NCBI GenBank assembly: GCA_016699385.1
Contig: CP064974.1
Coordinates: 195,242 to 259,241, forward strand
DNA from: Candidatus Moraniibacteriota bacterium
GTDB lineage: Bacteria > Patescibacteriota > Minisyncoccia > Moranbacterales > UBA1568
Length of the DNA stretch: 64,000 nt
Direction of reading: 5' to 3'
Numbering within the stretch: the first letter of the stretch is position 1; each line of letters starts with the position of its first letter. The notes beneath the pieces were generated by a model, which was given only the letters and a program-made list of their open reading frames with translations, did not search any database and was not told the DNA's origin. The position numbers and the translations under genes are program-made. Shown here piece by piece: positions 2,636-50,330 of the stretch.

Positions 2636-3790
2636 ATGACAGCCCCAGACACGAGAGCGGAGGGAAAACTCAAGCACAGAACGCGTCAGATTCAGAAGAC
2701 GGCGAAGATGGAGAAAACAGGGAAGATATCTCGAAAGGATGCCTCCTCCCGAGGGTTTTATGGTACGGCATTTCACCGTTTCTTGCACTCGATATCGCCA
2801 CGGGCAGTTGCTATTGTCTCGGCGCGCTACGGCGCAGGCGGGAAGGAACCGATGACGCTCGAAGAAATCGGGAAGACCTATGGCATTACGCGTGAGCGAA
2901 TTCGTCAGATTATCTCGGTACTCCTCGGGAATGTTCGCGCACGTCGTTACCCGGCATCACTCGAGGAAGTATCGAAGCGCATGGAGTCGACGCTCATGGG
3001 CAAAAGTGGTATCATGAAGAGGCAAGTATTTTTTGAAGCGATTGCTGGAACAGACACAAAAGAACAGGGCGCCGCTCGGTTTTTCTTGGCTGTTTTGTCG
3101 GAGCGTTTTCGAATGCTCGAAAGCAATTCGATGACACCTTCTATTGCTGTGGCTTCGTTTGCTGATGCCTCATGGGAGGCAGTAAACACGGCAGCAAAAA
3201 CACTACTTGTCGAAAACGGCGAATCACTCCTCGAAGCAGAATTTTTGAAACGAATCGCCAAACACCCTTCACTCAAAGCGGTTTCTCAGAAGACGATATT
3301 GGATTTTCTCGCGGTGTCGGAAGACTGTCGCAAGAATCCTTTTGGTCAGTGGGGACTTCCTGAATGGAGTGATATTTGTCCGCGAGGAACACGAGAGCGT
3401 GCCTATCTCGTTGTTCGCGCCGAAGGAAAGCCACTGCACTTCCGTGAGATAGCAGCGAAAATAGACCAGTCCGGATTGCAGAAGCCAGGGAAGGTGACGC
3501 ATCCCCAGACCGTGCACAATGAATTGATCAAAGATAAGCGATTTGTGTTGGTAGGGCGTGGTACCTATGCGCTCGTGGAGTGGGGATTCCGACGAGGAAC
3601 TGTCCGCGAAGTTGTTGAGGAAATACTGCGTGAGCGAGGCGTGCCCGTGAAGCGTGATGAGCTTGTGTCTGAGGTGCTCAAAGTTCGCGATGTGAAGGCA
3701 TCTACGGTGGTTATCAATCTCAATGCCTTTTTTGCTCGTACTCCAGAGGGTACCTATAGCTTGAAGGAGTCGAAGAAGCGAGCGAAATAG
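2636..3790 (+). CDS. Sigma-70 region 4-like HTH domain protein with a long C-terminal extension
   Basis: Segment MTLEEIGKTYGITRERIRQIISVLLGNVRA resembles RpoD region 4.2. Start placed at M 2636 (downstream of the promoter) rather than the upstream in-frame M at 2465. Confidence 0.55.
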   Translation: MTAPDTRAEGKLKHRTRQIQKTAKMEKTGKISRKDASSRGFYGTAFHRFLHSISPRAVAIVSARYGAGGKEPMTLEEIGKTYGITRERIRQIISVLLGNVRARRYPASLEEVSKRMESTLMGKSGIMKRQVFFEAIAGTDTKEQGAARFFLAVLSERFRMLESNSMTPSIAVASFADASWEAVNTAAKTLLVENGESLLEAEFLKRIAKHPSLKAVSQKTILDFLAVSEDCRKNPFGQWGLPEWSDICPRGTRERAYLVVRAEGKPLHFREIAAKIDQSGLQKPGKVTHPQTVHNELIKDKRFVLVGRGTYALVEWGFRRGTVREVVEEILRERGVPVKRDELVSEVLKVRDVKASTVVINLNAFFARTPEGTYSLKESKKRAK

Positions 3791-3829: not shown

Positions 3830-5227
3830 TTGTTCCTGAAAAGACAGTGCGGAAGTATACCTTTTGAGTGTTTCTTTGGCAGACTCTTAATCAACAGAAT
3901 GCGTGAGGGATTTTCAACGAACTATCCCATGGGCACTATTTTATTGCAGAATTTTAGAGGCATGTCGGAGGCGCTCTTGTCTATCTGGAGCGTTATGGGA
4001 GAAGTGTGGTTTTTGGTGCTCCCACCAGCACTCTACTTTGTTTTCAAATTTCTCTGGATGGATCACATCCAGAATCAGTACATCGGAAATACCAAGAACG
4101 TGCTTCTCGAGATTATTTCGCCACGCGATATCGAGAGGAGTCCCAAGGTGATGGAGACGATTTTCGATGGTATTGCAGGGGTTGATAAAGGTCCAACGAC
4201 AGTCGAGACTTATGTACAAGGGTATCTCCCGCCACTCATTAGTCTTGAGATGACGGGCGATGGTGTCGAGGGCACGCATCTCTATGTGCGGACGCCGGTG
4301 GTTTTTAGGAATCTTATTGAGGCATATTTTTACGCGCAATATCCCAATGTCGAAATCGTTGAGGTAGCTGACTATGTCGATGAAATTCCAAAAGGTGCGC
4401 CGAATCGAGACTGGGATCTGTTTGGAGTTGATATTGAATTTACCAAGCCTGATGCCTATCCGATCAAGACGTATCACTACTATGAGGAAGAAGTGACAGG
4501 GAAAATGATTGATCCGCTCGCAGGGCTTTTCGAGAGCTTTGGGAAATTGCCGCCGGGTCAGAAGCTCTGGTTTCAAATGATCATTACGCCACTCAAGCCG
4601 GATTATTACAATACCGGGAAGGCGCTCCTTGATGAAATTATTGGGCGTGCGGTCAAGGTGAAGCCGTCTTCGGCGCTTGGCAATCTGGCAGCGGGTATTG
4701 GAGAAATAGCGACGGCTGTTCCCAAAGCGTTCTTCGGGCCAGTCGAATTCGCTCCAGCAACACCAGAAAAGCCGGATAAAAAAGACTTTCTTGAATATCA
4801 ATTGACGCCGGTCGAAAAAGAAGTAGTGAAGGCGCTCGAGTCGAATATCGGGCGCAATGTGTTCGGGTCTCGTCTTCGTATGATCTATATCGGCAAGAGA
4901 AAGGGCTTCGACAAATCATTTGTGTCGACATTTTTTGGAGGACTCAAGCAGTTCAACGACTTCAATCTCAATGGCTTCAAGCCGAATGACGCGTCGAAAA
5001 CCTATGCGAACTATCTCCTGACCGATATGCGCCTTCGCTATCGACAGCGGAAAATTTTGCGTCGTTACAAATTTCGCGATCCCGACTCTCCGGTTCCGAT
5101 GCTCGCGCTCAGTACTGCGGAGCTTGCGACGCTCTTCCACATTCCTGACATGAACGTTGTTGCACCTTCCCTGCCACGCATCTCCGCGAAGCGAGGTTCT
5201 GCACCACAGAATTTGCCGATTCAATAG
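3830..5227 (+). CDS. Conserved hypothetical protein with N-terminal TM helix, partner of the downstream VirD4-like ATPase
   Basis: 465-aa ORF; TM segment VWFLVLPPALYFVFKFLW; possible later starts at 3929 or 3962; no recognisable catalytic motif. Confidence 0.55.
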   Translation: MFLKRQCGSIPFECFFGRLLINRMREGFSTNYPMGTILLQNFRGMSEALLSIWSVMGEVWFLVLPPALYFVFKFLWMDHIQNQYIGNTKNVLLEIISPRDIERSPKVMETIFDGIAGVDKGPTTVETYVQGYLPPLISLEMTGDGVEGTHLYVRTPVVFRNLIEAYFYAQYPNVEIVEVADYVDEIPKGAPNRDWDLFGVDIEFTKPDAYPIKTYHYYEEEVTGKMIDPLAGLFESFGKLPPGQKLWFQMIITPLKPDYYNTGKALLDEIIGRAVKVKPSSALGNLAAGIGEIATAVPKAFFGPVEFAPATPEKPDKKDFLEYQLTPVEKEVVKALESNIGRNVFGSRLRMIYIGKRKGFDKSFVSTFFGGLKQFNDFNLNGFKPNDASKTYANYLLTDMRLRYRQRKILRRYKFRDPDSPVPMLALSTAELATLFHIPDMNVVAPSLPRISAKRGSAPQNLPIQ

Positions 5228-5276
5228 TTTGAGTTGGTTTTGTGTTGGATTTCTGTTTCTTTTGAGTTTCTTGCCT

Positions 5277-7361
5277 ATGTCTGATATCACCTATTTTGCA
5301 AAAACGAATTTTCGGAACGAAGATCGCGTCTTCGGCATCAAGGCCGATGATCGCCGACGACACATGTATGTCATCGGAAAGACAGGCATGGGGAAGACGA
5401 ATATGCTCGAAAACCTTGTCATTCAAGATATTCAGCACGGACATGGCGTTGCCTTTATCGATCCACACGGCGATACGGCAGAGAAACTCATACGCGCCAT
5501 TCCGCCGTCACGCGTCAATGATGTGATTTATTTCAATCCGTCGGATCAAGATTTCCCGGTCGCCTTCAATGTGATGGAACATGTGTCGGCAGAATACCGA
5601 CATTTGGTTGCTTCTGGTTTGGTGGGTGTATTCAAGAAGATCTGGGCGGATTCTTGGGGACCGCGTCTCGAATATATTTTGCGAAATGCGATTCTCGCAC
5701 TCCTTGAATATCCGGGGAGTACGCTCCTTGGCGTGATGCGCATCTTGGTCGACAAAGAATATCGCAAGCGCGTGGTCGACAAAGTGACGGATCCGGTGGT
5801 GAAGTCGTTTTGGGTGGATGAATATACCAAGTGGAATGACCGAGTGTTGCAGGAAGTAATTGCGCCAATTCAGAACAAGGTTGGGCAATTTCTCTCGAGC
5901 TCGCTTATCCGCAATATTGTCGGGCAGACGGTTTCGTCATTCGATGTCCGCGATATTATGGACAATCGAAAGATTCTCATCATGAATCTTTCGAAGGGAC
6001 GTATCGGTGAGGATAATAGTGCGCTTATTGGCGCGATGATGATTACGAAGATTCAGCTCGCTGCTATGGGACGCGTAGATATTCCCGAGGACGAACGGCG
6101 GGATTTCTATCTCTATGTCGACGAATTCCAGAACTTTGCAACGGAATCATTTGGGAATATTCTTTCCGAAGCGCGAAAATACCGCCTTAACCTCGTCCTC
6201 GCCAATCAATACATCTTGCAGATTGAGGAACCCGTGCGGGATGCCATTTTTGGCAATGCAGGAACCATTATCAGTTTTCGTGTCGGGTCAACGGACGCTG
6301 AATTTCTCGAAAAGGAATTCTCACCGATTTTCTTGGCGACGGATATCGTGAATCTGGAGAAATATCACATCTATCTGAAGCTCATGATTGATGGCATCTC
6401 TGGCGATGCCTTCAGTGCGACAACGCTTCCGCCCATTGATCTTCCAGAAAGCGCTGACAACGCTGACAAAGTAATCCGCATTTCTCGCGAGCGATATGCG
6501 GCAAAGAAACAGGATGTTGAAGACAAGATTCGTCGTTGGACGGGCATTCTCACGGAAGAAGAGCGCCAGAGCTTCGAAGAACGCATGCGAATGCGTGTTG
6601 AGACGACGCTCACCAAACGAACTTCTCAGGAAATGAATGTTTCAGTTCCAGCGCCTTCTGCTTCACCTTCGAATCGAGAGGCTTCGCTTGGGCAGCATCG
6701 AGAAAGTCGGTACTCTTCTGAAAGAGCGGTTTCTCGGGAGTTTCCGTCGCATTTGCAGCAACCGTCTCCACGAAAAGAATTTTCCGCTCCCAATGAACTC
6801 ACAGTTTCTTCCACTCCACGGTATGAATCGAATGTGTCTTTTTCTTCATCACGTTCGGATGTTCGTCCGAGTCAGAGACAAGAAGCGTTATCGGGAAATG
6901 ACGCGCCGTCTTTCAACAATCGCCCCTTGTACAAGTCTGTGTGTGCCGTGTGCGGTGTTGAGATAGACGTTCCTTTCAAACCCGATGGGAAGCGCCCGAC
7001 ATTTTGTCGTGAGCATTTCAAGAATTTCCAGAAAACTGTTGCTCGGACTCGGGTGGATACTTCCACAGCTCTTCCGTCATTGGATTCGCGTTCAGATGCT
7101 GTTCAGAGCAGTGGTATGCCGAGAAATTTTGAGCCGAATCTTGCAAGGCGTGACGATCGTATGTCGCCGAGACTGCCACGTGAACAGAATTCCTTCATTC
7201 CCAAGGCATATACTCCAAAAGACGCGCCGATTTCTTTGGGGCAAATGCAACATATCGCCCCAAAACCTTTCAAGCGGGTGAAAGAAACGGTGGATCTGAG
7301 CGAAGTGCGAAAGATTCTTTCGTCCGAGCGAATGCCAGATGTCGATTCGAAGATTGACTAG
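5277..7361 (+). CDS. VirD4/TraG/TraD-like type IV coupling-protein-family ATPase with a Ser/Pro/Arg-rich C-terminal tail and C-terminal zinc ribbon
   Basis: Walker A YVIGKTGMGKTNMLENL...AFIDPHGD and Walker B-like ILIMNLSKGRIGE...LYVDEFQNFA, typical of TraG/VirD4/HerA-like ATPases. C-terminal 300 aa are low complexity and include CAVCGVEIDVPFKPDGKRPTFCREHF (C-x2-C...C-x2-H). Start chosen at MSDITYFAK (5277) rather than the upstream in-frame M at 5157. Confidence 0.7.
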   Translation: MSDITYFAKTNFRNEDRVFGIKADDRRRHMYVIGKTGMGKTNMLENLVIQDIQHGHGVAFIDPHGDTAEKLIRAIPPSRVNDVIYFNPSDQDFPVAFNVMEHVSAEYRHLVASGLVGVFKKIWADSWGPRLEYILRNAILALLEYPGSTLLGVMRILVDKEYRKRVVDKVTDPVVKSFWVDEYTKWNDRVLQEVIAPIQNKVGQFLSSSLIRNIVGQTVSSFDVRDIMDNRKILIMNLSKGRIGEDNSALIGAMMITKIQLAAMGRVDIPEDERRDFYLYVDEFQNFATESFGNILSEARKYRLNLVLANQYILQIEEPVRDAIFGNAGTIISFRVGSTDAEFLEKEFSPIFLATDIVNLEKYHIYLKLMIDGISGDAFSATTLPPIDLPESADNADKVIRISRERYAAKKQDVEDKIRRWTGILTEEERQSFEERMRMRVETTLTKRTSQEMNVSVPAPSASPSNREASLGQHRESRYSSERAVSREFPSHLQQPSPRKEFSAPNELTVSSTPRYESNVSFSSSRSDVRPSQRQEALSGNDAPSFNNRPLYKSVCAVCGVEIDVPFKPDGKRPTFCREHFKNFQKTVARTRVDTSTALPSLDSRSDAVQSSGMPRNFEPNLARRDDRMSPRLPREQNSFIPKAYTPKDAPISLGQMQHIAPKPFKRVKETVDLSEVRKILSSERMPDVDSKID

Positions 7362-30279: not shown

Positions 30280-31080
30280 ATGATAGAAAATATCTTCCAA
30301 TATAGCTTTATCCTCCGCGGTCTCGAAGCGGGCATTATCGTCGCTTGTGTTGCGCCGCTTATTGGTACATTTCTCGTATTGCGACGATATTCTCTGATTG
30401 CCGATACGCTGTCTCATGTGTCCCTTGCGGGTATTGCTCTCGGACTGCTTCTGAAGGTGAATCCGCTTTTGATGGCGCTTGGTGCGACGACAGTGGCGTC
30501 ACTTGGTATTGAGCGTTTGCGAAATTCGAAACGAGTCTATGGTGAGTCGGCGCTTGCTCTCTTTCTCTCGGGAAGTCTTGCCTTAGCAGTCGTGCTTCTG
30601 AGTCTTGCAAATGGCTTCAACTCGAGTCTTTTTAACTATCTCTTTGGGAGCATTGTGACCGTGACAGAGAATGATGTGCTTGTCATCGGTGTCGTCTCAG
30701 CATTTGTTATTATTGTATTGTTCGCGCTCTTCAAACCATTGCTCTATGTCACCTTCGATGAAGAAGCGGCACAAGTGAGTGGTATGCCGACGCGATTCCT
30801 CAATCTCACACTCATATTGCTCACGGCACTCACCGTTTCTGTGGCTATTCCTATTGTGGGCGTGCTCCTCATTGCGGCGCTCATGGTGATTCCGGTCATT
30901 GCGGCACTGCAGTGGAAGCGGGGATTTACGGGGACAATCATTATTGCAGAAATTATATCGATACTCTCAGTACTTACGGGTATCATTGCCTCGTTTTATC
31001 TCAATCTCGCAACGGGAGGGACTATCGTGCTCATTATGCTCTTTGCGTTTATCATTTCTTTGTTTGTCAATAGGCAGTAG
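30280..31080 (+). CDS. znuB: Metal ABC transporter permease
   Basis: 8-TM ABC-3 family permease. Confidence 0.9.
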   Translation: MIENIFQYSFILRGLEAGIIVACVAPLIGTFLVLRRYSLIADTLSHVSLAGIALGLLLKVNPLLMALGATTVASLGIERLRNSKRVYGESALALFLSGSLALAVVLLSLANGFNSSLFNYLFGSIVTVTENDVLVIGVVSAFVIIVLFALFKPLLYVTFDEEAAQVSGMPTRFLNLTLILLTALTVSVAIPIVGVLLIAALMVIPVIAALQWKRGFTGTIIIAEIISILSVLTGIIASFYLNLATGGTIVLIMLFAFIISLFVNRQ

Positions 31081-31103
31081 AAGTGATATTTTTTGGTTCT
31101 TGA

Positions 31104-31135
31104 AAAACATCAATGCTCGGGAGCATTGATGTTTT
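31104..31135. terminator. Bidirectional terminator hairpin (14-15-bp perfect stem AAAACATCAATGCTC/GAGCATTGATGTTTT)
   Basis: Seen between convergent znuB and nrdG. Confidence 0.75.
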
Positions 31136-31165
31136 GGTGTCCTGAATTTCAAAGGGTTCTTTGCG

Positions 31166-31966
31166 TCATCGACGAATATCGACGTGTTCAATGAAGGGGA
31201 GGAGTCTGGCTCGGGCACTATTGAGGTCTACAGATTTGTTTCGTGCGCTTTTTGCAAGTGTCGGATCGTAGAGTTTTATATCTCGGAATTCCTGGAGCGC
31301 GAAGTGTCGTGCACCGCGAATCCATTTGCCGATTTCTTGGAAGTCATCTTCGGTGTGTATGCCCGGAACGACCGTGGTGCGGAATTCATAGTCGGCGCCA
31401 CTCTCCATGATAATGCGAACGCTCTCTTGGAAGCGACTGATATCGATATCGGTATTGCCGGAGGCGAGTGGATATTTCTCCGGCGTGTGTTTGATATCCA
31501 TCGCCCAAAAGTCTACGAGCTTGGTCTCGGCGATTTTCCGGACAATATTCGGGAAAACACCATTGGTGTCGAGCTTCACCAAAAAGCCCATATTTTTTAT
31601 CTTTCGAATGAAATCGAGAAGATCAGCGTGGAGTGTCGGTTCGCCACCCGTGATACAGATACCGTCGAGTTTGCCTCCTCGTTTCTTGAGAAAATTCAGA
31701 AATTCATCGGTCTTGTCGCCACCCGTTTTCGCAAGGTACTCTTTGCTCGGCTCTATGAGCTCGGGGTTGTGGCAGAAAGGGCATCGCAAGACACAGCCGA
31801 GCGTAAACACCGTCGCGGCGAGTTTGCCGGGGTAGTCGAGGAGTGTGAGTGGTTGGTAGCCGGCGATATACATAATGCGATGGGCTTGCAATTTTGACGT
31901 ATTTCTTCGTCGCAAATTCCGATACTCGACACGGTATGACTCCATACAGCTTATTCTGCTTCTCAT
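31166..31966 (-). CDS. nrdG: Anaerobic ribonucleoside-triphosphate reductase activating protein (radical SAM)
   Basis: LTLLDYPGKLAATVFTLGCVLRCPFCHNPEL: CxxxCxxC radical-SAM cluster in NrdG-like context; downstream of nrdD. Confidence 0.85.
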   Translation of the reverse strand: MRSRISCMESYRVEYRNLRRRNTSKLQAHRIMYIAGYQPLTLLDYPGKLAATVFTLGCVLRCPFCHNPELIEPSKEYLAKTGGDKTDEFLNFLKKRGGKLDGICITGGEPTLHADLLDFIRKIKNMGFLVKLDTNGVFPNIVRKIAETKLVDFWAMDIKHTPEKYPLASGNTDIDISRFQESVRIIMESGADYEFRTTVVPGIHTEDDFQEIGKWIRGARHFALQEFRDIKLYDPTLAKSARNKSVDLNSARARLLPFIEHVDIRR

Positions 31967-32029
31967 TTGCGCCTCGAAATAAACTCAAAATTGCAAGCCT
32001 TGGTAGTATTGAGAAATATGCAGATATCC

Positions 32030-32281
32030 CTAGGCGACGGATGGGGTGTACTCCAAGCGGTCGGCGTATTCTTGTTGCTTGCCCTTGTTCCATTGCTCGA
32101 CGGGGCGGATATAGCCGACGACGCGCGTGTAGGTTTCGGTTTTCTGGAAGTCGGAGAGTTCCGGTTTTGCCTCATGGCACGCGCGACACTTCGCCATTGT
32201 TTTCCCGTTCACTTCGTAGGGCATATACTCTGCCCCTCTCTCGAGCGCCTTCCCACAATCATGACAGGTTATCTTTTGCAT
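32030..32281 (-). CDS. Stand-alone NrdD C-terminal module: zinc ribbon plus glycyl-radical motif (83 aa)
   Basis: CHDCGKALERGAEYMPYEVNGKTMAKCRACH (CxxC...CxxC) then TRVVGYIRPVEQWNKGKQQEYADRLEY, which matches the class III RNR glycyl-radical segment (RV/ICGY...WN.GK..E..DR). Own AGGAAA RBS 7 nt upstream of the ATG. Confidence 0.7.
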   Translation of the reverse strand: MQKITCHDCGKALERGAEYMPYEVNGKTMAKCRACHEAKPELSDFQKTETYTRVVGYIRPVEQWNKGKQQEYADRLEYTPSVA

Positions 32282-32293
32282 AACTTTTTTCCT

Positions 32294-32308
32294 AACAAAT
32301 TATTTGTT
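32294..32308. promoter_or_regulatory. 15-bp perfect palindrome AACAAAT-T-ATTTGTT immediately upstream of the RBS of the glycyl-radical ORF
   Basis: Seen directly; AT-rich palindrome reminiscent of repressor boxes. No assignment possible. Confidence 0.3.
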
Positions 32309-32327
32309 TAGAGTCTGTTGAGAAGGG

Positions 32328-32409
32328 CTGTTTTTCAGAAAAAATTGTTTTTTTACTTGTCTACGCTTGCTCCGAAAGCCGCAAAAAAACAATTTTTTCT
32401 GAAAAACAG
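32328..32409 (-). ncRNA. Hairpin element copy A: 27-bp perfect stem (CTGTTTTTCAGAAAAAATTGTTTTTTT) with conserved 28-nt loop ACTTGTCTACGCTTGCTCCGAAAGCCGC, between nrdD and the glycyl-radical ORF
   Basis: Seen directly; a second copy with an essentially identical loop and a different but complementary stem is at 34720-34774. Confidence 0.6.
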
Positions 32410-32449
32410 TGCGAGAAGTACGCCTTTTTGATACTTTTTTAGCAGGCTC

Positions 32450-34528
32450 TCAGACTTTTTGATATTCCTTTGTGGTTGAAATAGTGATGCATTGTGGGCA
32501 CGTCTTGTGTTCGCCGGGGAGGTAACCGTGGGTGGGACAGACGCTGAAAGTGGGAGAGAGTGTGAAATAGGGGAGATGGTATTTCTCGGCGATACGGCGG
32601 ACGAGAGTGCGTGCCATATCGGGGTCATTGATGCGTTCGCCCAAGAATCCGTGGAGGACGGTGCCGCCCGTGTACTGCGTCTGCAGGTTATCCTGGAGGT
32701 CGAGGGCTTCGAAGATATCGTCGGTAAAGCCAACAGGAAGATGCGAAGAATTGGTGTAGTAGGGTTCGGCGTGTCGAGTCTGCACTTCTTTCTGATTGGC
32801 AACGATGATATCAGGATAGTGTTTCTTGTCGAGGAGCGCGAGGCGATAGGCGGTGCCTTCGGCGGGAGTCGCTTCGAGATTGTAGAGATTATTGGTCTTT
32901 TCTTGGTAGTTTCCGATATGCTCGCGCATGTGTGTCAGAATTCTCTTGGCAAATGCCTGACCTTTTTCGGTGGTGATATCGGTATGGATGAGATTTTGAA
33001 TGGCTTCATTGGTGCCGACGAGTCCAATGGTGGAGAAATGATTCTTCCAGTATTGATGGAATCGCTTCTTGATATTTCCGAGGTAGAATTTTGTATAGGG
33101 GTAGAGGCCCTTTTCGGTGAGTTGCTCGACGATTTTCCGTTTGACTTCGAGGCTTTCTTGAGCGATGTCCATGAGGCGATCAAGACGCTTGAAGAAATCC
33201 TTTTCATTCTTGGAAAGGTAGCCGATTCGAGGGAGATTGATAGTGACGACGCCGATTGAGCCGGTTAGGGGATTGGCGCCGAAGAGTCCGCCGCCGCGCT
33301 TCCGAAGTTCGCGATTGTCGAGGCGTAGGCGACAGCACATACTGCGCGCGTCGTCCGGACTCATGTCGGAATTGACGAAGTTGGCGAAGTAGGGGATGCC
33401 ATATTTGGCGGTCATTTCCCAGAGCGGAGCATAGGCGGGATTTTCCCAGTCGAAATTCTTGGTGATGTTGTAGGTCGGGATAGGGAAAGTGAAGATACGT
33501 CCCGAAGCATCTCCTTCGCACATTACTTCGGCAAAGGCGCGGTTGATCATTGCCATCTCCGTGGCGAAGTCGCCATAGGTTTCTTTCTGTGGCTCGCCGC
33601 CGATGATGACGTGGTTCTTTGCGAGAATCTTGGGCGGGATGATGTCCATCGTGATGTTCGAAAACGGCGTTTGGAATCCGACGCGCGTCGAGACATTCAT
33701 GTTGAAGACGAAAGATTGGATTTCCTGTTTTACCTGTGCATAAGAAAGTTTGTCTTTTCGAACGAAGGGAGCAAGGAGTGTGTCAAAGTTGGAGAATGCC
33801 TGCGCGCCGGCGACTTCGCCCTGGAGGGTGTAGATAAAATTAACCATTTGTCCCAAGATTGATCCCAGGTGCTTGGCAGGTTTGCAAGAAACTTTGCCAG
33901 GGACGCCGGTGAAGCCTTGTCGCAAGAGGTCTTCGAGATCCCAGCCACAACAGTAGGCAGAGATGAGTTGGAGATCGTGAATATGGAGATCGCCGGATTC
34001 GTGGGCATCACGCACTTCTTTGGAATAGATTTTGTTCATCCAGTACTTGGTGCTGATAGCACTCGAGACATAGTTGTTGAGCCCTTGGAGAGAATACGCC
34101 ATGTTTGCATTTTCCTTCACAAGCCAGTCGAGATTGCCGATGTATTTGTCGACGAGGTGCACGGCTTTGACGAGAGATTCTTCCGTTTCGCGGACTTCCG
34201 CGTGTTGCTGTCGGTAGAGGATATAGGCTTTGGCGGTGTCATGAAAGCCTTCGGACATGAGGACGGTTTCGACGAGGTCCTGAATCTCTTCTATTTTTGG
34301 AATGAAGGGACCGAGGTTTTGCTTTGCGTAGTGTCGAGCTTTCTTTTCGAGGAGGGAGAGGACTTTCTTGCCGACGCGTGCGGCGTCTTTTTCACTTCCT
34401 TCCGTGGTTGCAAAGAGCGCTTTCTCGATGGCATTAATAATCTTGTACGGATTGAACGATGTGGTTCGTCCACTTCTTCTTCGTACGGATTCGATGGATA
34501 CTTTCTCTGTTTTCTTTCTTTGTTTCAT
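32450..34528 (-). CDS. nrdD: Anaerobic ribonucleoside-triphosphate reductase (class III) with N-terminal ATP-cone; ends at the zinc ribbon and lacks the glycyl-radical motif
   Basis: 692 aa; ATP-cone N-terminus (VRRRSGRTTSFNPYKIINAIEKA), conserved NrdD core, C-terminal CPTHGYLPGEHKTCPQC, then a TGA stop; no RxCGY-type motif in the ORF. Confidence 0.9.
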   Translation of the reverse strand: MKQRKKTEKVSIESVRRRSGRTTSFNPYKIINAIEKALFATTEGSEKDAARVGKKVLSLLEKKARHYAKQNLGPFIPKIEEIQDLVETVLMSEGFHDTAKAYILYRQQHAEVRETEESLVKAVHLVDKYIGNLDWLVKENANMAYSLQGLNNYVSSAISTKYWMNKIYSKEVRDAHESGDLHIHDLQLISAYCCGWDLEDLLRQGFTGVPGKVSCKPAKHLGSILGQMVNFIYTLQGEVAGAQAFSNFDTLLAPFVRKDKLSYAQVKQEIQSFVFNMNVSTRVGFQTPFSNITMDIIPPKILAKNHVIIGGEPQKETYGDFATEMAMINRAFAEVMCEGDASGRIFTFPIPTYNITKNFDWENPAYAPLWEMTAKYGIPYFANFVNSDMSPDDARSMCCRLRLDNRELRKRGGGLFGANPLTGSIGVVTINLPRIGYLSKNEKDFFKRLDRLMDIAQESLEVKRKIVEQLTEKGLYPYTKFYLGNIKKRFHQYWKNHFSTIGLVGTNEAIQNLIHTDITTEKGQAFAKRILTHMREHIGNYQEKTNNLYNLEATPAEGTAYRLALLDKKHYPDIIVANQKEVQTRHAEPYYTNSSHLPVGFTDDIFEALDLQDNLQTQYTGGTVLHGFLGERINDPDMARTLVRRIAEKYHLPYFTLSPTFSVCPTHGYLPGEHKTCPQCITISTTKEYQKV

Positions 34529-34550
34529 ACGGTTTTTGTCTAGAATATTC

Positions 34551-34781
34551 GATTTTGGAGAAAAGAAAAACCGTGGACATCAAGACCTCCCCCACGGAGT
34601 GCGCGTTTCCGTTGTGCGCCTCCTCATTATCTTCCAAAGTTTCTAACTCGTAAAGTTTCCTTTGGTGGAAAGAAAAATGGTATACTTTGAAGAGCACTGT
34701 CTCGCGGAAGTATTCGGCAGAAATTCTTTTTTACTTGTCTATGCATGCTCTGAAAGCCACAAAAGAAGAATTTCCACCAAA
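34551..34781 (-). promoter_or_regulatory. Structured nrdD 5' leader: hairpin element copy B (34720-34774, loop ACTTGTCTATGCATGCTCTGAAAGCCAC), an enclosing 11-bp helix (34661-34671 with 34771-34781), and a terminator-like hairpin (CCGTGG...CCACGG plus U-run, 34551-34597) about 25 nt before the start codon
   Basis: All pairings seen directly in sequence and read on the minus (mRNA) strand. This is the architecture expected for a cis-regulatory RNA with an expression platform. Confidence 0.5.
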
Positions 34782-34827
34782 TGCAGCGCATCATTTGAAG
34801 AAGAAATAATCCATCATTTTCTGCCGT

Positions 34828-36951
34828 ATGAACATTCAGTCTTTGTTTGAGCCGAAATCAATCGCTATTGTGGGAGCATCGACGAAGGTTGGGAGTGTCG
34901 GAAACGACATCGTGAAGAATTTGGTCGAGCAAAAATATCAGGGCGAAATATACCCAGTCAATCCAAAGACTGATTCACTCTATGATCGACGCTGTTACCC
35001 ACATCTTGCGGCGATTGAGGGAGAGGTTGATTGCGCTATTATCGCGGTCCCAGCGCCAATTGTGTCAACTGTTTTGCGAGAGGCAGTGGCAAAGCAAGTG
35101 AAAAGCGCGGTGGTTATTTCCGCCGGGTTTCACGAAGCAGGGAATGCCGAACTCGAGCGGGAAATCTCCGATATTGCACGTTCGGGTGATATGGCGCTTC
35201 TTGGTCCGAATTGTCTCGGTGTAGTCAATCCGCATCTCTCCATGAATGCCTCTTTTGCGCGGACGCTTCCGAAGAAGGGCAATATCGCATTTTTATCACA
35301 AAGCGGCGCACTCGGAACAGCCGTGCTCGATATGGCAGCAAATATCGGTGTGGGTTTCTCGAAATTTGTGAGTCTTGGGAATAAAGCGCTTCTTGATGAG
35401 TCGGCACTGCTTGAATATTTTGCAAATGATAGGAAGACGAAGGTGATTGCTATATACGCCGAGGATCTTCGAAATCCTACGGCAATTAAGAATGTGGCGC
35501 GCGCGATGGCACTGGCAAAGAAGTCGAAACCAATCATCATACTCAAATCAGGGAAAACATCGGCAGGTGCACAGGCGCTTTCATCGCACACCGGGTCTCT
35601 TGCGGGAAATGATGCGAGTTATGAGGCGCTCTTTGAGGAGGCGGGGATTCTTCGTGCCGAGACAGCGGAAGAGCTCTTTTTGCTGGCGCGAGGTTTCTCG
35701 CTTCTCCCGCTTCCTCTGGGGAAAAATATTGCCGTACTCACCAATGCCGGCGGTCCGGGTGTGCTCTCTGCGGATGCGGCGCTTGAGTCAGGACTTTCGC
35801 TTGCGCCGCTTTCTGAGGCGACGATGACCGAATTGCGTTCGTTTTTGCCACTAGCTTCGGGTGTGAAAAATCCAGTTGATATCTTGGGCGATGCAAAAAG
35901 TGACCGCTATGCTCGTGCGCTCGACACGATTCTTCTCGATACGTCCGTTCATATGGTGATGGTGGTGCTCACGCCACAGTCTATGACGGATGTTGAAGCA
36001 ATAGCAGAAGTAATCGCGGAGCGTGCCAAAGTGGCTACTGTGCCAATGGTTGCTGCCTTCATGGGAGGGAAGCTGGTTGCTGGTGGCATCAAAGTGCTTC
36101 TGCGAAAAAAGGTCCCTGTAGTCGGGTTTCCGGAAGATGGCATACATATGCTCGCCGCACTCGCGCACTTTCGCGAAATGCGAGAAGAGATGCGGGTTGA
36201 TGCGGGAGATTTCTCAGGATTCGAAGCATCGGGAACGATTGACCGGTCGCGAGTCGAAGCGATTTTCCATGAAATAGAAGTATCTGGACGGAAGGCGTTG
36301 TCGGCAGTGGAGACGCTCGAGGTGTTTTCGGCGTATGGACTCTCTCTGCCTCGATATGCTGTTGCAACGACTGCCGAAGAGGCGAGTCGAGTGGCACGTG
36401 AGATTGGCACACCTTGTGCGCTGAAAATTCTGTCGGAAGACATCACACACAAGAGCGACGCAGGCGGTGTCCTTCTCAATATCTCGCCGGAAAATGCCGG
36501 AGCGTCGTTTCAGGCGATTATAGACCGTGTGAGAGCTTCTTCTCCCGAGGCGAAGATAGAGGGCGTATTATTTATGGAAATGGCAGCAAGGGGTGGTATT
36601 GAACTCATTGCGGGCAGCTTCCGCGATCCAAACTTGGGACAGACTATTATGCTCGGGAGTGGCGGTATCTATGTCGAAATTTTGAAAGACGCGGCGTTTG
36701 GTCTCGCTCCGGTTTCTCGGAATCGTGCCGAAGAAATGCTTCGGAAACTCCGAATCTTCCCGCTGCTCGATGGTGCGCGCGGTGGCACGAAATACGATGT
36801 TGCTTCCGTCGTTGAATGCGTCGGTCGCCTCTCGCAACTTCTCGCTGATTTCCCCGCTATCCACGAACTCGACATCAACCCAATTATCGTCTATCCGCAG
36901 TCTTCAGAGAGCACACATGCTCTCATTGTCGATGGTCGACTGTCATTGTGA
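34828..36951 (+). CDS. ADP-forming acetyl-CoA synthetase / acyl-CoA synthetase (NDP-forming), fused alpha-beta
   Basis: N-terminal CoA-binding domain (SIAIVGASTKVGSVGNDIVKNL), succinyl-CoA-synthetase-like flavodoxin domain and C-terminal ATP-grasp; 707 aa. Confidence 0.85.
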   Translation: MNIQSLFEPKSIAIVGASTKVGSVGNDIVKNLVEQKYQGEIYPVNPKTDSLYDRRCYPHLAAIEGEVDCAIIAVPAPIVSTVLREAVAKQVKSAVVISAGFHEAGNAELEREISDIARSGDMALLGPNCLGVVNPHLSMNASFARTLPKKGNIAFLSQSGALGTAVLDMAANIGVGFSKFVSLGNKALLDESALLEYFANDRKTKVIAIYAEDLRNPTAIKNVARAMALAKKSKPIIILKSGKTSAGAQALSSHTGSLAGNDASYEALFEEAGILRAETAEELFLLARGFSLLPLPLGKNIAVLTNAGGPGVLSADAALESGLSLAPLSEATMTELRSFLPLASGVKNPVDILGDAKSDRYARALDTILLDTSVHMVMVVLTPQSMTDVEAIAEVIAERAKVATVPMVAAFMGGKLVAGGIKVLLRKKVPVVGFPEDGIHMLAALAHFREMREEMRVDAGDFSGFEASGTIDRSRVEAIFHEIEVSGRKALSAVETLEVFSAYGLSLPRYAVATTAEEASRVAREIGTPCALKILSEDITHKSDAGGVLLNISPENAGASFQAIIDRVRASSPEAKIEGVLFMEMAARGGIELIAGSFRDPNLGQTIMLGSGGIYVEILKDAAFGLAPVSRNRAEEMLRKLRIFPLLDGARGGTKYDVASVVECVGRLSQLLADFPAIHELDINPIIVYPQSSESTHALIVDGRLSL

Positions 36952-48564: not shown

Positions 48565-48786
48565 GTGACTTGGAAGATGCAAGGGCATGGTGCGATCTTG
48601 GGAATAGAAGAGCATTCTCAAGGAAATGTCGAATCGACAAGGAATCGGCGACCACTTGAATTGCTTTGTTATGAAGCCTACTCTTTCAAAGAGGAAGCCC
48701 TGGGGAGAGAAAAATATTTGAAAACAAGTGATGGAAAAAAAGACCTGAAGAAGAGATTGACAAAAAGTTTTACGGAAGGGTGCTAG
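48565..48786 (+). pseudogene. GIY-YIG nuclease family protein, N-terminally truncated remnant (GIY strand missing), overlapping the tRNA-Ser 5' end
   Basis: EEHSQGNVESTRNRRPLELLCYEAYSFKEEALGREKYLKTSDGKKDLKKRL matches the C-terminal two-thirds of small GIY-YIG proteins (R..xP..L.Y.E.F....A...E..LK...G). GTG start directly after the upstream stop in the same frame. Confidence 0.55.
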
Positions 48787-48860
48787 AGTGGTCGAATAGG
48801 ACAGTCTCGAAAACTGTTGTACCGGAAACGGTACCGTGGGTTCGAATCCCACCCCTTCCG
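48774..48860 (+). tRNA. tRNA-Ser (anticodon CGA), type II tRNA with long variable arm; no encoded CCA
   Basis: Cloverleaf folded by hand: acceptor GGAAGGG/CCCTTCC, D-stem CUA/UAG, anticodon stem ACAGU/ACUGU with loop CUCGAAA, variable stem-loop UACCG-GAAA-CGGUA, T-arm GUGGG-UUCGAAU-CCCAC, discriminator G. Confidence 0.9.
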
Positions 48861-50330
48861 CATTTGTTCAATATCCGCCGTACCCCCTGCTTTTTCAAGT
48901 ATGCGGTACGGCTGTTTTAGTGTATACGAAGCCATCTCGCCATTTACAATCGTCGCGTTCAAAAGTACCGTTTCCAGTACCTTCCTCTTTTTCACATCAT
49001 CGCCCTCGATAAAATCCTTTTCCGCACCAGAAGCGGACAAAAAGACTTTTTTCACCTGTTCTAAAGTGCGAGTCATGGTTTCGGGATTGTGCCTCTCCAA
49101 TTCCTTGAGTCGCTGTTGTATCTCGGCGGTTTCTTTGTTGAAGGCTTCCAGCTTCGCGTCTACGGTCTCTCCCGCATACTTTCCCGCCAGTTGGATATCA
49201 AGAAGCCTCATCTCTTGTTGTGCGAGTGTCTCGCGCCGTTTTTCGAGGTTTGACTTCATGGTTTCAAAGAAACTCCCGTCTTTTTTGTTTTTCTCTCGGT
49301 CGGCTTCGTAGCACAACTCGATGAATTCTTCGTCAAAGTGAATTTTCTTGAAGATTGAGGCAAGTATTTTCTCGGCTTCTTCACTTCGCATATACTGCTT
49401 GTGCGCTTCACAGTTTCCTTTCCCATTGGTGCAGTAGTAATACGTGAAGCCTTTCTTCTCCATGGCGGTCATGAGACACCCGCACGAATGACAGGTCATA
49501 AAGCCTCGCAAAGGGAAAAAATGTTTCTTGTATCGGCTTCTGTTTTTTCCCGTGAAAACATCCTGTGTCTTCTCAAACAATTCTTTGGATATGATGGTTT
49601 CGTGATTGCCCGAATAATATATGCCGTGGACATACATGATGCCGTGATAGAAAGGGTCTTTGAGAATTTTCTGAATTCTTCCTTTGCGATATTTGTACCC
49701 GCTTCGAGAACGGAAGCCTTCTTGAAAAAGCAGGTCGGATATTTTTTTGAGGCTATAACTTCCCGAAGCGTACAATTCAAAAGCCCTCTTGATAAAGGGG
49801 GCGCGTTCGGTATCAACGAGTATCGTTTTGTTGAGTCGGTCGTTGAGGTATCCAATTTTGGCATAATTGGGGTAGCCGCCATTTTCCAGTTTCGACGCCA
49901 TGCCTCGCTTTACTCGTGTACTCAAGGTGCGGATTTCCTGATTTGCTTCTCCGGTTTTAACACTGAAAAGTACGGCGTCATCGCTTGGCAGATAGCATTT
50001 CTCCATCGTCTGAATTTCCTTGATGATTCCTTCCTGCAAAAGCCACAGGATTTTTCCGCTGTCTATCGGGTTTCTCGAAAGGCGGTCTAATGCCCAGCAG
50101 ACAATGCCGTCTGCTTCGCCGTCTTCAATCATTCGTATCATTTCCGTAAACATCGGGCGATTGTAGGGTTTCTTGGCGGACTTGGATTCGGCGAAGACTT
50201 TGATGATATTCAAGCCCAATTCACTTGCCCGTCTTTGCATGTTGCTGATTTGCGATTCAAGGGAGAGGGCTTGCCGATTCTTGTCTTCGGAAGATTTTCG
50301 GACGTAGAGGAGGTATTTCATAGTGTCCAT
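48783..50330 (-). CDS. Large serine recombinase (resolvase/invertase catalytic domain, recombinase domain, zinc ribbon); annotated C-terminus reads through the tRNA
   Basis: N-terminal YVRKSSEDKNRQALSLESQ (catalytic Ser context), C-terminal CHSCGC...YYYC zinc ribbon; 515 aa. The last ~25 aa are the translated tRNA complement, so the true end is probably earlier. Confidence 0.9.
   Translation of the reverse strand: MDTMKYLLYVRKSSEDKNRQALSLESQISNMQRRASELGLNIIKVFAESKSAKKPYNRPMFTEMIRMIEDGEADGIVCWALDRLSRNPIDSGKILWLLQEGIIKEIQTMEKCYLPSDDAVLFSVKTGEANQEIRTLSTRVKRGMASKLENGGYPNYAKIGYLNDRLNKTILVDTERAPFIKRAFELYASGSYSLKKISDLLFQEGFRSRSGYKYRKGRIQKILKDPFYHGIMYVHGIYYSGNHETIISKELFEKTQDVFTGKNRSRYKKHFFPLRGFMTCHSCGCLMTAMEKKGFTYYYCTNGKGNCEAHKQYMRSEEAEKILASIFKKIHFDEEFIELCYEADREKNKKDGSFFETMKSNLEKRRETLAQQEMRLLDIQLAGKYAGETVDAKLEAFNKETAEIQQRLKELERHNPETMTRTLEQVKKVFLSASGAEKDFIEGDDVKKRKVLETVLLNATIVNGEMASYTLKQPYRILEKAGGTADIEQMRKGWDSNPRYRFRYNSFRDCPIRPL

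Follow-up and report, generated by a model that had tools for sequence, protein, structure and literature searches.

A stand-alone zinc-ribbon and glycyl-radical module as the probable missing tail of a truncated class III ribonucleotide reductase in Candidatus Moraniibacteriota

Introduction

Can the glycyl-radical domain of an anaerobic (class III) ribonucleotide reductase (RNR) act from a polypeptide of its own? The question is raised by a locus of a Candidatus Moraniibacteriota bacterium (GCA_016699385.1, contig CP064974.1), located in a stretch of 64,000 nt (hereafter the window, within which positions are numbered). The genes on its minus strand follow the order nrdD-L (692 aa), a 168-nt spacer, nrdD-S (83 aa) and nrdG. 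An original prediction made from the letters of this DNA had proposed that the large open reading frame (ORF) encodes an NrdD catalytic subunit deprived of its radical segment, and that the small ORF encodes that segment. Two explanations were offered: an NrdD working as two polypeptides, with a stand-alone radical module comparable to GrcA/YfiD, or an inserted element that had left the gene a pseudogene or dependent on an unusual rescue. The analysis reported here favours the first of them, on account of more than 100 protein clusters in which the small ORF is conserved, beginning at its own ATG and ribosome-binding site, the purifying selection on it and its presence next to 7/7 truncated nrdD genes.

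GrcA/YfiD rescues pyruvate formate-lyase (PFL) that has been cleaved by oxygen (glycyl-radical enzyme reviews, 2021 and June 2026). Validated spare parts of this type are known only for PFL/formate lyases, those of other glycyl-radical enzymes being 'yet to be determined' (reviews 2021, June 2026). The literature searched, which left out many manuscripts and most subscription journals, yielded no account of an NrdD whose glycyl-radical domain is split off or acts in trans.

Results

The large ORF stops at the position of the radical glycine

The 692-aa product exhibits the predicted ATP-cone and catalytic core of NrdD, and its TGA stop follows a zinc ribbon, as confirmed by Pfam, NCBIfam and the translation. 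Pfam NRDD covers residues 139–684, corresponding to profile positions 1–531 of 562, with a PF13597 score of 619 bits. NF006126 scored 1045.5 bits (cut-off 548) over profile positions 3–649 of 684 only, and TIGR02487 scored 531.5 bits (cut-off 326). The finger loop with the catalytic cysteine is present as SMCCRLRLD, which is of the MCCR type among the MGCR/MCCR motif classes described in PMC9669993, and the C-terminal zinc ribbon is kept (CPTHGY..CPQC, residues 664–680), as in intact relatives. The glycyl motif is absent from this ORF, as had been proposed: no RVxGY was found on NrdD-L by translation or profile, and the motif sits on the 83-aa ORF.

NrdD-L terminates in ..CPTHGYLPGEHKTCPQCITISTTKEYQKV*, and its last residues, TKEYQKV, align with TEVYSRV, the strand before the radical glycine in intact NrdDs. 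The protein ends 1–2 residues short of the glycine position. Alignment to NrdD structures had been suggested as a check of the domain boundary, and that to the Thermotoga maritima enzyme (4coi) matches the split between the large and the small ORF. Residues 166–682 of NrdD-L align to residues 96–610 of the T. maritima enzyme, and residues 44–76 of NrdD-S match its residues 609–642, the PDB sequence search with the small protein being weak (E about 0.7).

The small ORF carries a zinc ribbon and the glycyl-radical loop

The proposal that the ribbon and glycyl-radical segment lie on a separate 83-aa ORF agrees with the Pfam NRDD match of NrdD-S (E = 3.9e-12), which spans positions 510–562 of 562, that is, the C-terminal ribbon and the glycyl-radical segment. 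The sequence contains a CHDC..KCRAC ribbon followed by ETYTRVVGYIRPVEQWNKGKQQEYADRLEY, with the radical segment ..TRVVGYIRPVEQWNKGK.. and the glycyl loop ..TRVVG56YIRPVEQWNKGK... A metal ribbon is therefore encoded by both ORFs, as noted originally (C664..C680 in the large one; C6, C9, C32 and C35 in the small one). The C-terminus of NRDD was the sole match of NrdD-S, and none was obtained to PF01228 (PFL-type Gly_radical, IPR011140) at E ≤ 0.01, because of which NrdD-S is not considered a member of the GrcA/YfiD family. In an AlphaFold2 (AF2) model of the module (predicted local distance difference test score of 75.5), residues 4–6, 19–24 and 27–32 form the ribbon beta-hairpins. Strands 49–52 and 57–60 flank G56 and place it at a beta-hairpin tip downstream of the ribbon, a modelled position that is the usual presentation of a radical glycine.

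The layout is conserved and selected in close relatives

The junction of the window is identical over 261 nt to that of GCA_049643625.1 (Candidatus Moraniibacteriota; L081), an independent NCBI assembly. Four more assemblies (L083, L085, L086 and L087), with NrdD identities of 77–91%, exhibit the same architecture, so that five related assemblies share the split for which a search of related genomes had been suggested. Each of these four encodes a 686–693-aa nrdD, an 83/84-aa ORF and a 235-aa nrdG, and their nrdD ends are conserved as [ST][TA]KEY[QK][KR][VA]*. The same layout was found in Logan, ENA and JGI assemblies at 74–89% protein identity. The stop of the large ORF varies among relatives (TGA, TAA or TAG), and the small ORF is conserved from its own Met1, with its own ribosome-binding site (RBS). 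Pairwise ratios of nonsynonymous to synonymous substitution rates (dN/dS) ranged from 0.04 to 0.09 for the large ORF, from 0.09 to 0.13 for the small ORF and from 0.07 to 0.13 for nrdG. The feature is genuine, conserved and under selection, and reflects neither a pseudogene nor faulty assembly.

Truncated nrdD genes are accompanied by the module

Loci found via the glycine motif are unfit to test whether a truncated nrdD always has a module, since such a test is circular, and the sample was redrawn by homology to the NrdD core. With the large ORF as query, 36 of the 120 best NrdD clusters (about 30%) lack the glycyl motif and end at the EVYSRV vestige. The truncated clusters show several vestigial tail types, and P0292 is apparently in the middle of decay. 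Vestiges of the pre-glycine strand such as KEYQKV*, TVYLKV.., TEVFLKV.. and EVVRKVCC* close the truncated large ORFs, versus TEVYSRV-VGY in intact ones. Seven truncated nrdD genes were then picked by NrdD homology, contig size and tail type, independently of the module, and a 70–103-aa ORF with ribbon and glycine was present just downstream in all of them (7/7). The module ORF had been missed by the gene caller in L249, and in L250 it lies after an intervening 196-aa ORF.

The module forms a family found with and without an intact nrdD

A word-indexed search with the small ORF returned 105 clusters, all short (64–131 aa; 38–98% identity), and the named clusters among them all belong to Parcubacteria-type bacteria of the candidate phyla radiation (CPR). 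Residues C6, D8, C9, K31, C32, C35, E49, Y51, R53, V55, G56 and Y57, and further R59, P60, K68, E71 and R75, do not vary among 36 aligned sequences (A1); as read from this alignment, they amount to a Cys4 ribbon and a glycyl-radical loop. A module profile searched against 1.84 billion representatives gave 4503 matches at E ≤ 1e-3, of which 832 reached E ≤ 1e-10; the top 150 are all 42–159 aa long. The modules have no model of their own in Pfam, NCBIfam or PHROGs, and match only the C-terminal end of full-length NrdD models. Among fused NrdDs, L218, L219 and L232 were considered as candidates for carrying the extended ribbon of the module and proved canonical.

The genomic contexts of 80 species-level genome loci were sorted into four groups. 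Group (i) consists of 12 CPR loci in which an ORF with ribbon and glycine lies between nrdG and a full-length nrdD that has its own tail (..CEVYSRIVGYIRPVEQWNAGK..), the large gene being frameshifted in the assembly in two of the 12 (L002 and L066). Group (ii), with an nrdD truncated after the canonical ribbon plus a module, comprises 7 more species-level CPR loci, the window and its close relatives not being counted. A single-chain nrdD without module defines group (iii), found in other CPR and in non-CPR loci. Group (iv), in which a truncated nrdD precedes a short ORF with a glycyl tail and no ribbon, includes Thermotogota, Bipolaricaulota, Anaerolineae, Spirochaetota and some CPR metagenome-assembled genomes (MAGs). 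In 4 of the group (iv) loci the small ORF begins with GTG or TTG, 5–7 nt after an AAGGAGG within the 3' end of the large ORF, and these are therefore genuine overlapping genes and not frameshift errors; in the Thermotogota and Bipolaricaulota MAGs, the arrangement suggests a split that came about independently, with translational coupling and no second ribbon. A scan of metagenome contigs added seven loci of type (i) and one of type (ii). The small protein coexists with an intact nrdD in 12 related genomes and 7 metagenome contigs.

A different arrangement was observed at L044 (4869–5016) and L071 (2977–3265), where the large ORF stops mid-ribbon, at ..GEHFECPY followed by TGA (L044) or TAA (L071). 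The small ORF, in the same frame and 144 or 285 nt on, begins M(S/A)CK(H/C)KTEVYSR, a start with which the ribbon would be complete. The impression is of a short sequence intervening within the ribbon and not of a clean domain split.

In a neighbour-joining tree of NrdD cores, the three states (cis tail only, cis tail plus module, module only) are interleaved within the CPR clade, which therefore points to repeated losses of the cis tail or of the module. Modules beside an intact nrdD, too, remain under strong purifying selection, with dN/dS values of 0.03–0.12 (six pairs). Over the 34 residues of the glycyl segment, the identity of cis tail to module is 83% within a genome and 72% between genomes (means), and lineage-specific residues are common to both, such as RIVGY..WNAGK..EEYKDR in L010/12/13/16 and LRPVSQWNEGKQQEF in L034/35. 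At codons for the same residue, between 12/27 and 24/31 of the third positions agree in cis tail and module, so the resemblance may owe something to selection and something to gene conversion.

The structured spacer is not shared by the relatives

A spacer does separate the two ORFs as predicted, although it is 168 nt long and not 170. The 27-bp-stem hairpin described in it is real, a perfect inverted repeat with no occurrence in 100 shuffles, and the spacer fold reaches -51.5 kcal/mol (z = -4.5). The 15-bp palindrome and the AGGAAA RBS ahead of the ATG are likewise in place; the ATG is preceded by AGGAAAAAAGTT. Spacer lengths are 168 nt in the window and L081, 25 nt in L083, 152 nt in L085/86 and 1414 nt in L087. 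Only the final ~25 nt, AATAATTTGTTAGGAAAAAAGTT (AATAATTTGTTAGGAAAAAGTT-ATG), are shared with relatives, in which the right half of the palindrome and the RBS are conserved. The hairpin is absent in L083, and the spacer of L085/86 holds a different AT-rich palindromic insert. As the relatives' spacers range from 25 to 1414 nt with only the RBS region conserved, the hairpin spacer appears incidental, and the idea that a structured spacer forms part of the system fails on the close relative with 25 nt at this place. Judging from the compared junctions, most of the spacer is a later lineage-specific insertion and the hairpin is predicted to lie outside the mechanism; it could be an incidental insert or an element of mRNA stability or processing.

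The hairpin has no U-tract, and a scan of the coding strand of the spacer revealed no promoter-like or terminator-like site. An Rfam scan of positions 31000–35500 gave miRNA-like hairpin matches far below gathering scores, and no intron, riboswitch or other known RNA. The hairpin was also considered as a repeated mobile element and rejected: within the window its arm occurs only at this locus, and JGI metagenome contigs contain no exact copy.

The junction of L087 (2586–4000) extends over 1.4 kb and contains two extra ORFs, one of 155 aa with a PF27709 match and one of 138 aa, together with two degenerate duplicates of the final ~65 nt of nrdD-L. In the window, the spacer partly repeats the last codons of the large ORF (32424–32471; AAAGTATCAAAAAG versus GGAATATCAAAAAG). 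The duplicated ends in L087 and the partial repeat in the window therefore make the junction seem an insertion hot spot with target duplication.

The activase gene, the neighbourhood and the feature list

The third gene of the locus, nrdG, encodes a radical SAM (S-adenosylmethionine) activase that scored 201.7 bits against TIGR02495 (cut-off 131.15) and contains the CxxxCxxC cluster motif as CVLRCPFC. Its ORF is open up to an ATG at 31966 (266 aa); the relatives are called at 235 aa, and the 235-aa form yields clean codon alignments. The coordinates of all features are listed in Table 1.

Table 1. Features of the nrdD-L/nrdD-S/nrdG locus (window positions) and of related loci (positions within each locus)
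Feature	Position	Strand	Evidence
nrdD-L, class III RNR catalytic subunit, 692 aa	32450..34528	-	Pfam, NCBIfam, PDB alignment, dN/dS
Stop codon TGA of nrdD-L	32450-32452	-	Sequence
ATP-cone of nrdD-L, residues 14-110	34199..34489	-	PF03477, E = 9e-20
Canonical NrdD zinc ribbon of nrdD-L, C664-x2-H ... C677-x2-C680 (CPTHGYLPGEHKTCPQC)	32489..32539	-	Translation; also in full-length relatives
Vestigial strand TKEYQKV, end of nrdD-L	32453..32473	-	Tail comparison with intact relatives; T. maritima alignment
Intergenic spacer, 168 nt	32282..32449	-	Junction comparison of window, L081, L083, L085/86, L087
Perfect 27-bp stem, 28-nt loop	32328-32354 / 32383-32409	.	Inverted-repeat search, shuffles, folding
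15-bp palindrome AACAAATAATTTGTT (32294-32308) and AGGAAA RBS (32288-32293)	32288..32308	-	Sequence; junction comparison
nrdD-S, stand-alone glycyl-radical module (predicted), 83 aa	32030..32281	-	Pfam NRDD positions 510-562; homologous clusters; alignment A1; dN/dS
Cys4 zinc ribbon of nrdD-S (C6, C9, C32, C35)	32177..32266	-	Alignment A1; AF2 model
RVVGY motif of nrdD-S; predicted radical glycine G56 at 32114-32116	32111..32125	-	Alignment A1; AF2; T. maritima alignment
nrdG activase, radical SAM, 235 aa from likely ATG at 31873	31166..31873	-	TIGR02495; relatives' gene calls; dN/dS
Group (iv) ~65-aa tail-only ORFs, Thermotogota/Bipolaricaulota MAGs	L046 ~4890-5126; L061 ~4929-5126; L055 ~955-1248; L057 ~3011-3241		
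Orphan-module loci (match near 5001 in most)	L018, L020-L023, L025, L026, L029, L031-L033, L036-L038, L042		
Viral examples of the module	L088 3989-4231; L124 3851-4126; L128 3893-4126		

In seven related loci (L249–L255), nrdR (Zn_ribbon_NrdR plus ATP-cone) lies directly upstream of nrdD; in the window (upstream region 34529–34830) its place is taken by a divergently transcribed gene resembling ADP-forming acetyl-CoA synthetase (34828–36951). A zinc-uptake-type cluster, consisting of an ABC-3 permease, an ABC (ATP-binding cassette) ATPase, ZnuA and a FUR-family regulator, adjoins nrdG (30280–31080 and downstream), and the orphan module of L027 is preceded by a FUR-family gene. These neighbours may be a coincidence or a link to zinc-ribbon proteins. 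Elsewhere in the window, a large serine recombinase (Resolvase, Recombinase and Zn_ribbon_recom; 48783–50330) and a TrwB/HerA-like ATPase with a treble-clef zinc finger (5157–7361) hint at integrated mobile DNA.

Orphan and viral modules

Orphan modules of 110–130 aa were observed in Desulfobacterales, Syntrophales and a Methanophagales (ANME-1-type) archaeon. They carry an additional helix-like segment at the N-terminus (MTIQRLHELFDENPGK..), and their ribbon insert is longer. No conserved partner of the orphan modules was found in their gene neighbourhoods, which are unrelated to each other.

A scan of viral contigs (IMG/VR, L088–L167) confirmed 337 relatives. Among the best 80 of these 337, 77 are orphans, small ORFs that have neither nrdD nor nrdG within 4 kb: 31 possess their own ribbon and 46 are tail-only, many of the latter with an N-terminal NGDLxLDNGxxIPAxKR. 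The surrounding genes in L128 and L089 resemble those of phages (homing endonucleases, an SbcC-like protein, RuvC and an exonuclease). The ANMV-1 virus (KP703175.1, 25525–25959; L168, 2686–3120) encodes a 144-aa stand-alone ribbon and glycyl module beside a prohead protease; the protein is annotated as 'anaerobic ribonucleoside triphosphate reductase' and holds the radical domain only. The original ANMV-1 paper took this 144-aa protein as evidence of a virus-encoded oxygen-sensitive RNR.

Many modules, and many full-length NrdD tails of the subfamily, end in a cysteine pair (..ACC, ..CGC, ..CSC or ..SCC) that is reminiscent of the redox shuttle at the C-terminus of class I/II RNRs; the module of the window ends ..TPSVA, with no cysteines.

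Discussion

A two-polypeptide RNR and its proposed mechanism

The locus probably encodes a two-polypeptide class III RNR together with its activase, with NrdD-S as a trans-acting glycyl-radical module. We propose that nrdD-L, nrdD-S and nrdG would be co-transcribed, NrdD-S being translated from its own RBS and ATG. NrdG, with SAM and its [4Fe-4S] cluster, would abstract a hydrogen from G56 of NrdD-S, and the activated module would insert its glycine loop into the barrel of NrdD-L in place of the missing cis tail. The docked module would then generate the thiyl radical on the finger loop of NrdD-L. Oxygen damage would cleave the chain at the glycine, after which just 83 residues would have to be replaced instead of 692. 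The module would require a ribbon of its own; the zinc site of NrdD is thought to stabilise the glycyl loop (PMC9669993). By analogy with PFL, NrdD-L looks like a genetically fixed form of an oxygen-cleaved NrdD, which stops at the glycine and retains the preceding strand.

As for its history, the module may have arisen as a copy of the C-terminal domain of NrdD. In sister lineages it would still stand beside an intact NrdD and act as a GrcA/YfiD-like spare part, and in the lineage of the window and roughly 30% of the related NrdD clusters the cis tail would have been lost and the module have become obligatory. Since the module also occurs beside intact, tailed nrdD genes, the likely order of events is that a trans module was first gained, by duplication or acquisition, and that the cis tail was lost afterwards. 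The same observation does not suit a gene simply broken in two where an element inserted.

Several points weigh against a trans-acting module. Gene conversion, and not a shared docking site, could explain part of the similarity between cis tails and modules, in which the third positions of codons for the same residue agree in up to 23/27 cases. The ribbon and vestigial strand that NrdD-L retains would have to be accommodated or displaced by the incoming module, and the module is present also in genomes with an intact nrdD. A Foldseek comparison of the isolated module with the PDB gave generic zinc ribbons only (E > 0.1). Finally, no second RNR was found among the ORFs of at least 475 aa within the 64-kb window, and a second intact nrdD or an RNR of another class may lie elsewhere in the genome.

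Alternative explanations

The small protein might be a real glycyl-radical protein that does not complete NrdD-L, and that regulates or titrates NrdG, stores a radical or serves another partner. NrdD-L would then be inactive, otherwise employed or backed up by another RNR. We consider this explanation unlikely. It accommodates the orphan copies located far from nrdD and nrdG in Desulfobacterales, other CPR genomes and viral contigs, as well as the coexistence of the module with intact NrdDs, where it is unneeded for basic activity, and the RNR inventory covers the 64-kb window and not the whole genome. However, it leaves unaccounted for the module lying directly downstream of 7/7 independently sampled truncated nrdD genes and the coincidence of the truncation point with the glycine position. 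Moreover, the glycyl segment of the module tracks the cis tail of the same lineage, and a dead enzyme would not show purifying selection as strong as that on NrdD-L (dN/dS 0.04–0.09).

That the small ORF merely rides between nrdD and nrdG as a selfish or virus-derived element of no benefit to the host is highly improbable: CPR lineages that diverged deeply keep it at a fixed place in the operon, the purifying selection on it is strong and it has no mobility genes of its own. Furthermore, repeated loss of the cis tail has so far been encountered only where the module is present. The many viral contigs with related modules, and a junction that attracts insertions (in L087, two extra ORFs and a duplicated nrdD 3' end), are what such a passenger would lead one to expect.

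Both ORFs of the window are in the same frame, the 168-nt spacer is a multiple of three and strongly structured, and phage nrdD genes with introns and inteins are known. These features would suit a full-length NrdD still made across the spacer by read-through, frameshifting, ribosomal bypassing, an intron or protein trans-splicing, a possibility to which we give hardly any credence. The window spacer contains an in-frame TAA. Among the relatives, the stops are TGA, TAA or TAG, and the spacers of 25, 152, 168 and 1414 nt are in different frames, with just 25 nt left at the junction of one of them. Rfam detected no intron (sub-threshold miRNA-like hairpins only) and Pfam no intein (Hint) domain, and in the small ORF conservation begins at Met1, behind an RBS of its own. 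In addition, a fused product would carry tandem ribbons, and none were found among about 60 full-length relatives.

A pseudogene, or a stop or spacer produced by an assembly or sequencing artefact, is practically negligible despite the unusual layout and a hairpin that could in principle confuse assemblers, given the identical junction in the independent NCBI assembly L081 (GCA_049643625.1), the recurrence of the layout in Logan, ENA and JGI assemblies, dN/dS far below 1 for both ORFs and truncation at the same place in 30% of the related NrdD clusters; the relatives' layout, the dN/dS values and the variable stops and spacers likewise lead us to reject the insertion-disrupted gene, or gene in need of rescue, of the original prediction.

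Comparison with known systems

A two-polypeptide NrdD with a trans module invites comparison with the Escherichia coli protein GrcA/YfiD and with Y06I of phage T4, which, like NrdD-S, are small stand-alone copies of the C-terminal glycyl-radical domain of a large enzyme. NrdD-S, like GrcA/YfiD, is presumably activated by its partner's own activase, as its operon position and motif conservation suggest. In both cases the module family coexists with the intact enzyme in many genomes, and viral versions of the module exist, as with T4 Y06I. Moreover, the truncated partner ends at the glycine and keeps a strand that overlaps the module; an overlapping strand has been described between YfiD and oxygen-cleaved PFL, as between NrdD-S and NrdD-L. 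In contrast to GrcA/YfiD, NrdD-S belongs to a different sequence family, matching only the C-terminus of NrdD models, and has its own zinc ribbon, whereas GrcA/YfiD has a disordered N-terminus. Its presumed partner is a class III RNR and not PFL. As the partner in the window is genetically truncated, NrdD-S would be a necessity there and not, like GrcA/YfiD, a part for repair.

With single-chain NrdD and NrdG (E. coli, T4, T. maritima), the locus has in common the core, ATP-cone, finger loop, ribbon, glycyl motif and activase, in the usual order; it differs in that the glycyl loop is on a separate polypeptide with a second, extended ribbon. The split class II NrdJa/NrdJb (Pseudomonas aeruginosa; Thermus phage phiYS40) also consists of two consecutive ORFs with a C-terminal functional tail on the second. 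However, it is a plain fission of one chain in another RNR class, with no radical-bearing module, and there is no evidence of its second piece beside intact genes or as an orphan. Phage RNRs split by introns, inteins or homing endonucleases (the T4 nrdD intron; Aeh1 nrdA) resemble the locus in having an interrupted gene and an insertion-attracting junction, but no intron, intein or endonuclease is present at the junction of the window, and nrdD-L and nrdD-S overlap, both having a ribbon and a pre-glycine strand, rather than abut. In logic only, the class I RNR alpha/beta system is similar, with a radical on a separate dissociable subunit that is handed to the catalytic subunit, although the proteins and the radical chemistry are unrelated.

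Implications

Judged from the sequences compared here, NrdD-S most likely supplies the lost radical tail, and it would be the first spare-part radical module outside PFL. For the wider family, the balance of evidence is even on whether the ribbon and glycine mini-proteins are the first exchangeable glycyl-radical cofactors outside PFL. Under this proposal they would be spare parts beside intact class III RNRs, an obligatory radical subunit in a large share of Moranbacteria/Parcubacteria, and genes carried by viruses of anaerobes (including ANMV-1) to keep the host NrdD running, comparable to T4 Y06I.

The annotation of proteins of 45–150 aa now labelled "anaerobic ribonucleoside-triphosphate reductase" is corrected by these findings; one paper had read one of them as a complete viral RNR. 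The locus and its relatives are concrete candidates for a spare part of class III RNR, by which the question left open in the reviews becomes testable, and the relatives constitute natural controls, with intact enzyme plus module, tail-less enzyme plus module, and intact enzyme alone. The findings also suggest that viruses of anaerobes carry an auxiliary gene for the supply of deoxyribonucleoside triphosphates. If the proposal is true, the radical domain of class III RNR can function as a dissociable subunit, which would have a bearing on the way NrdG reaches the glycine loop and on the handling of oxygen pulses by strict anaerobes whose genomes are tiny.

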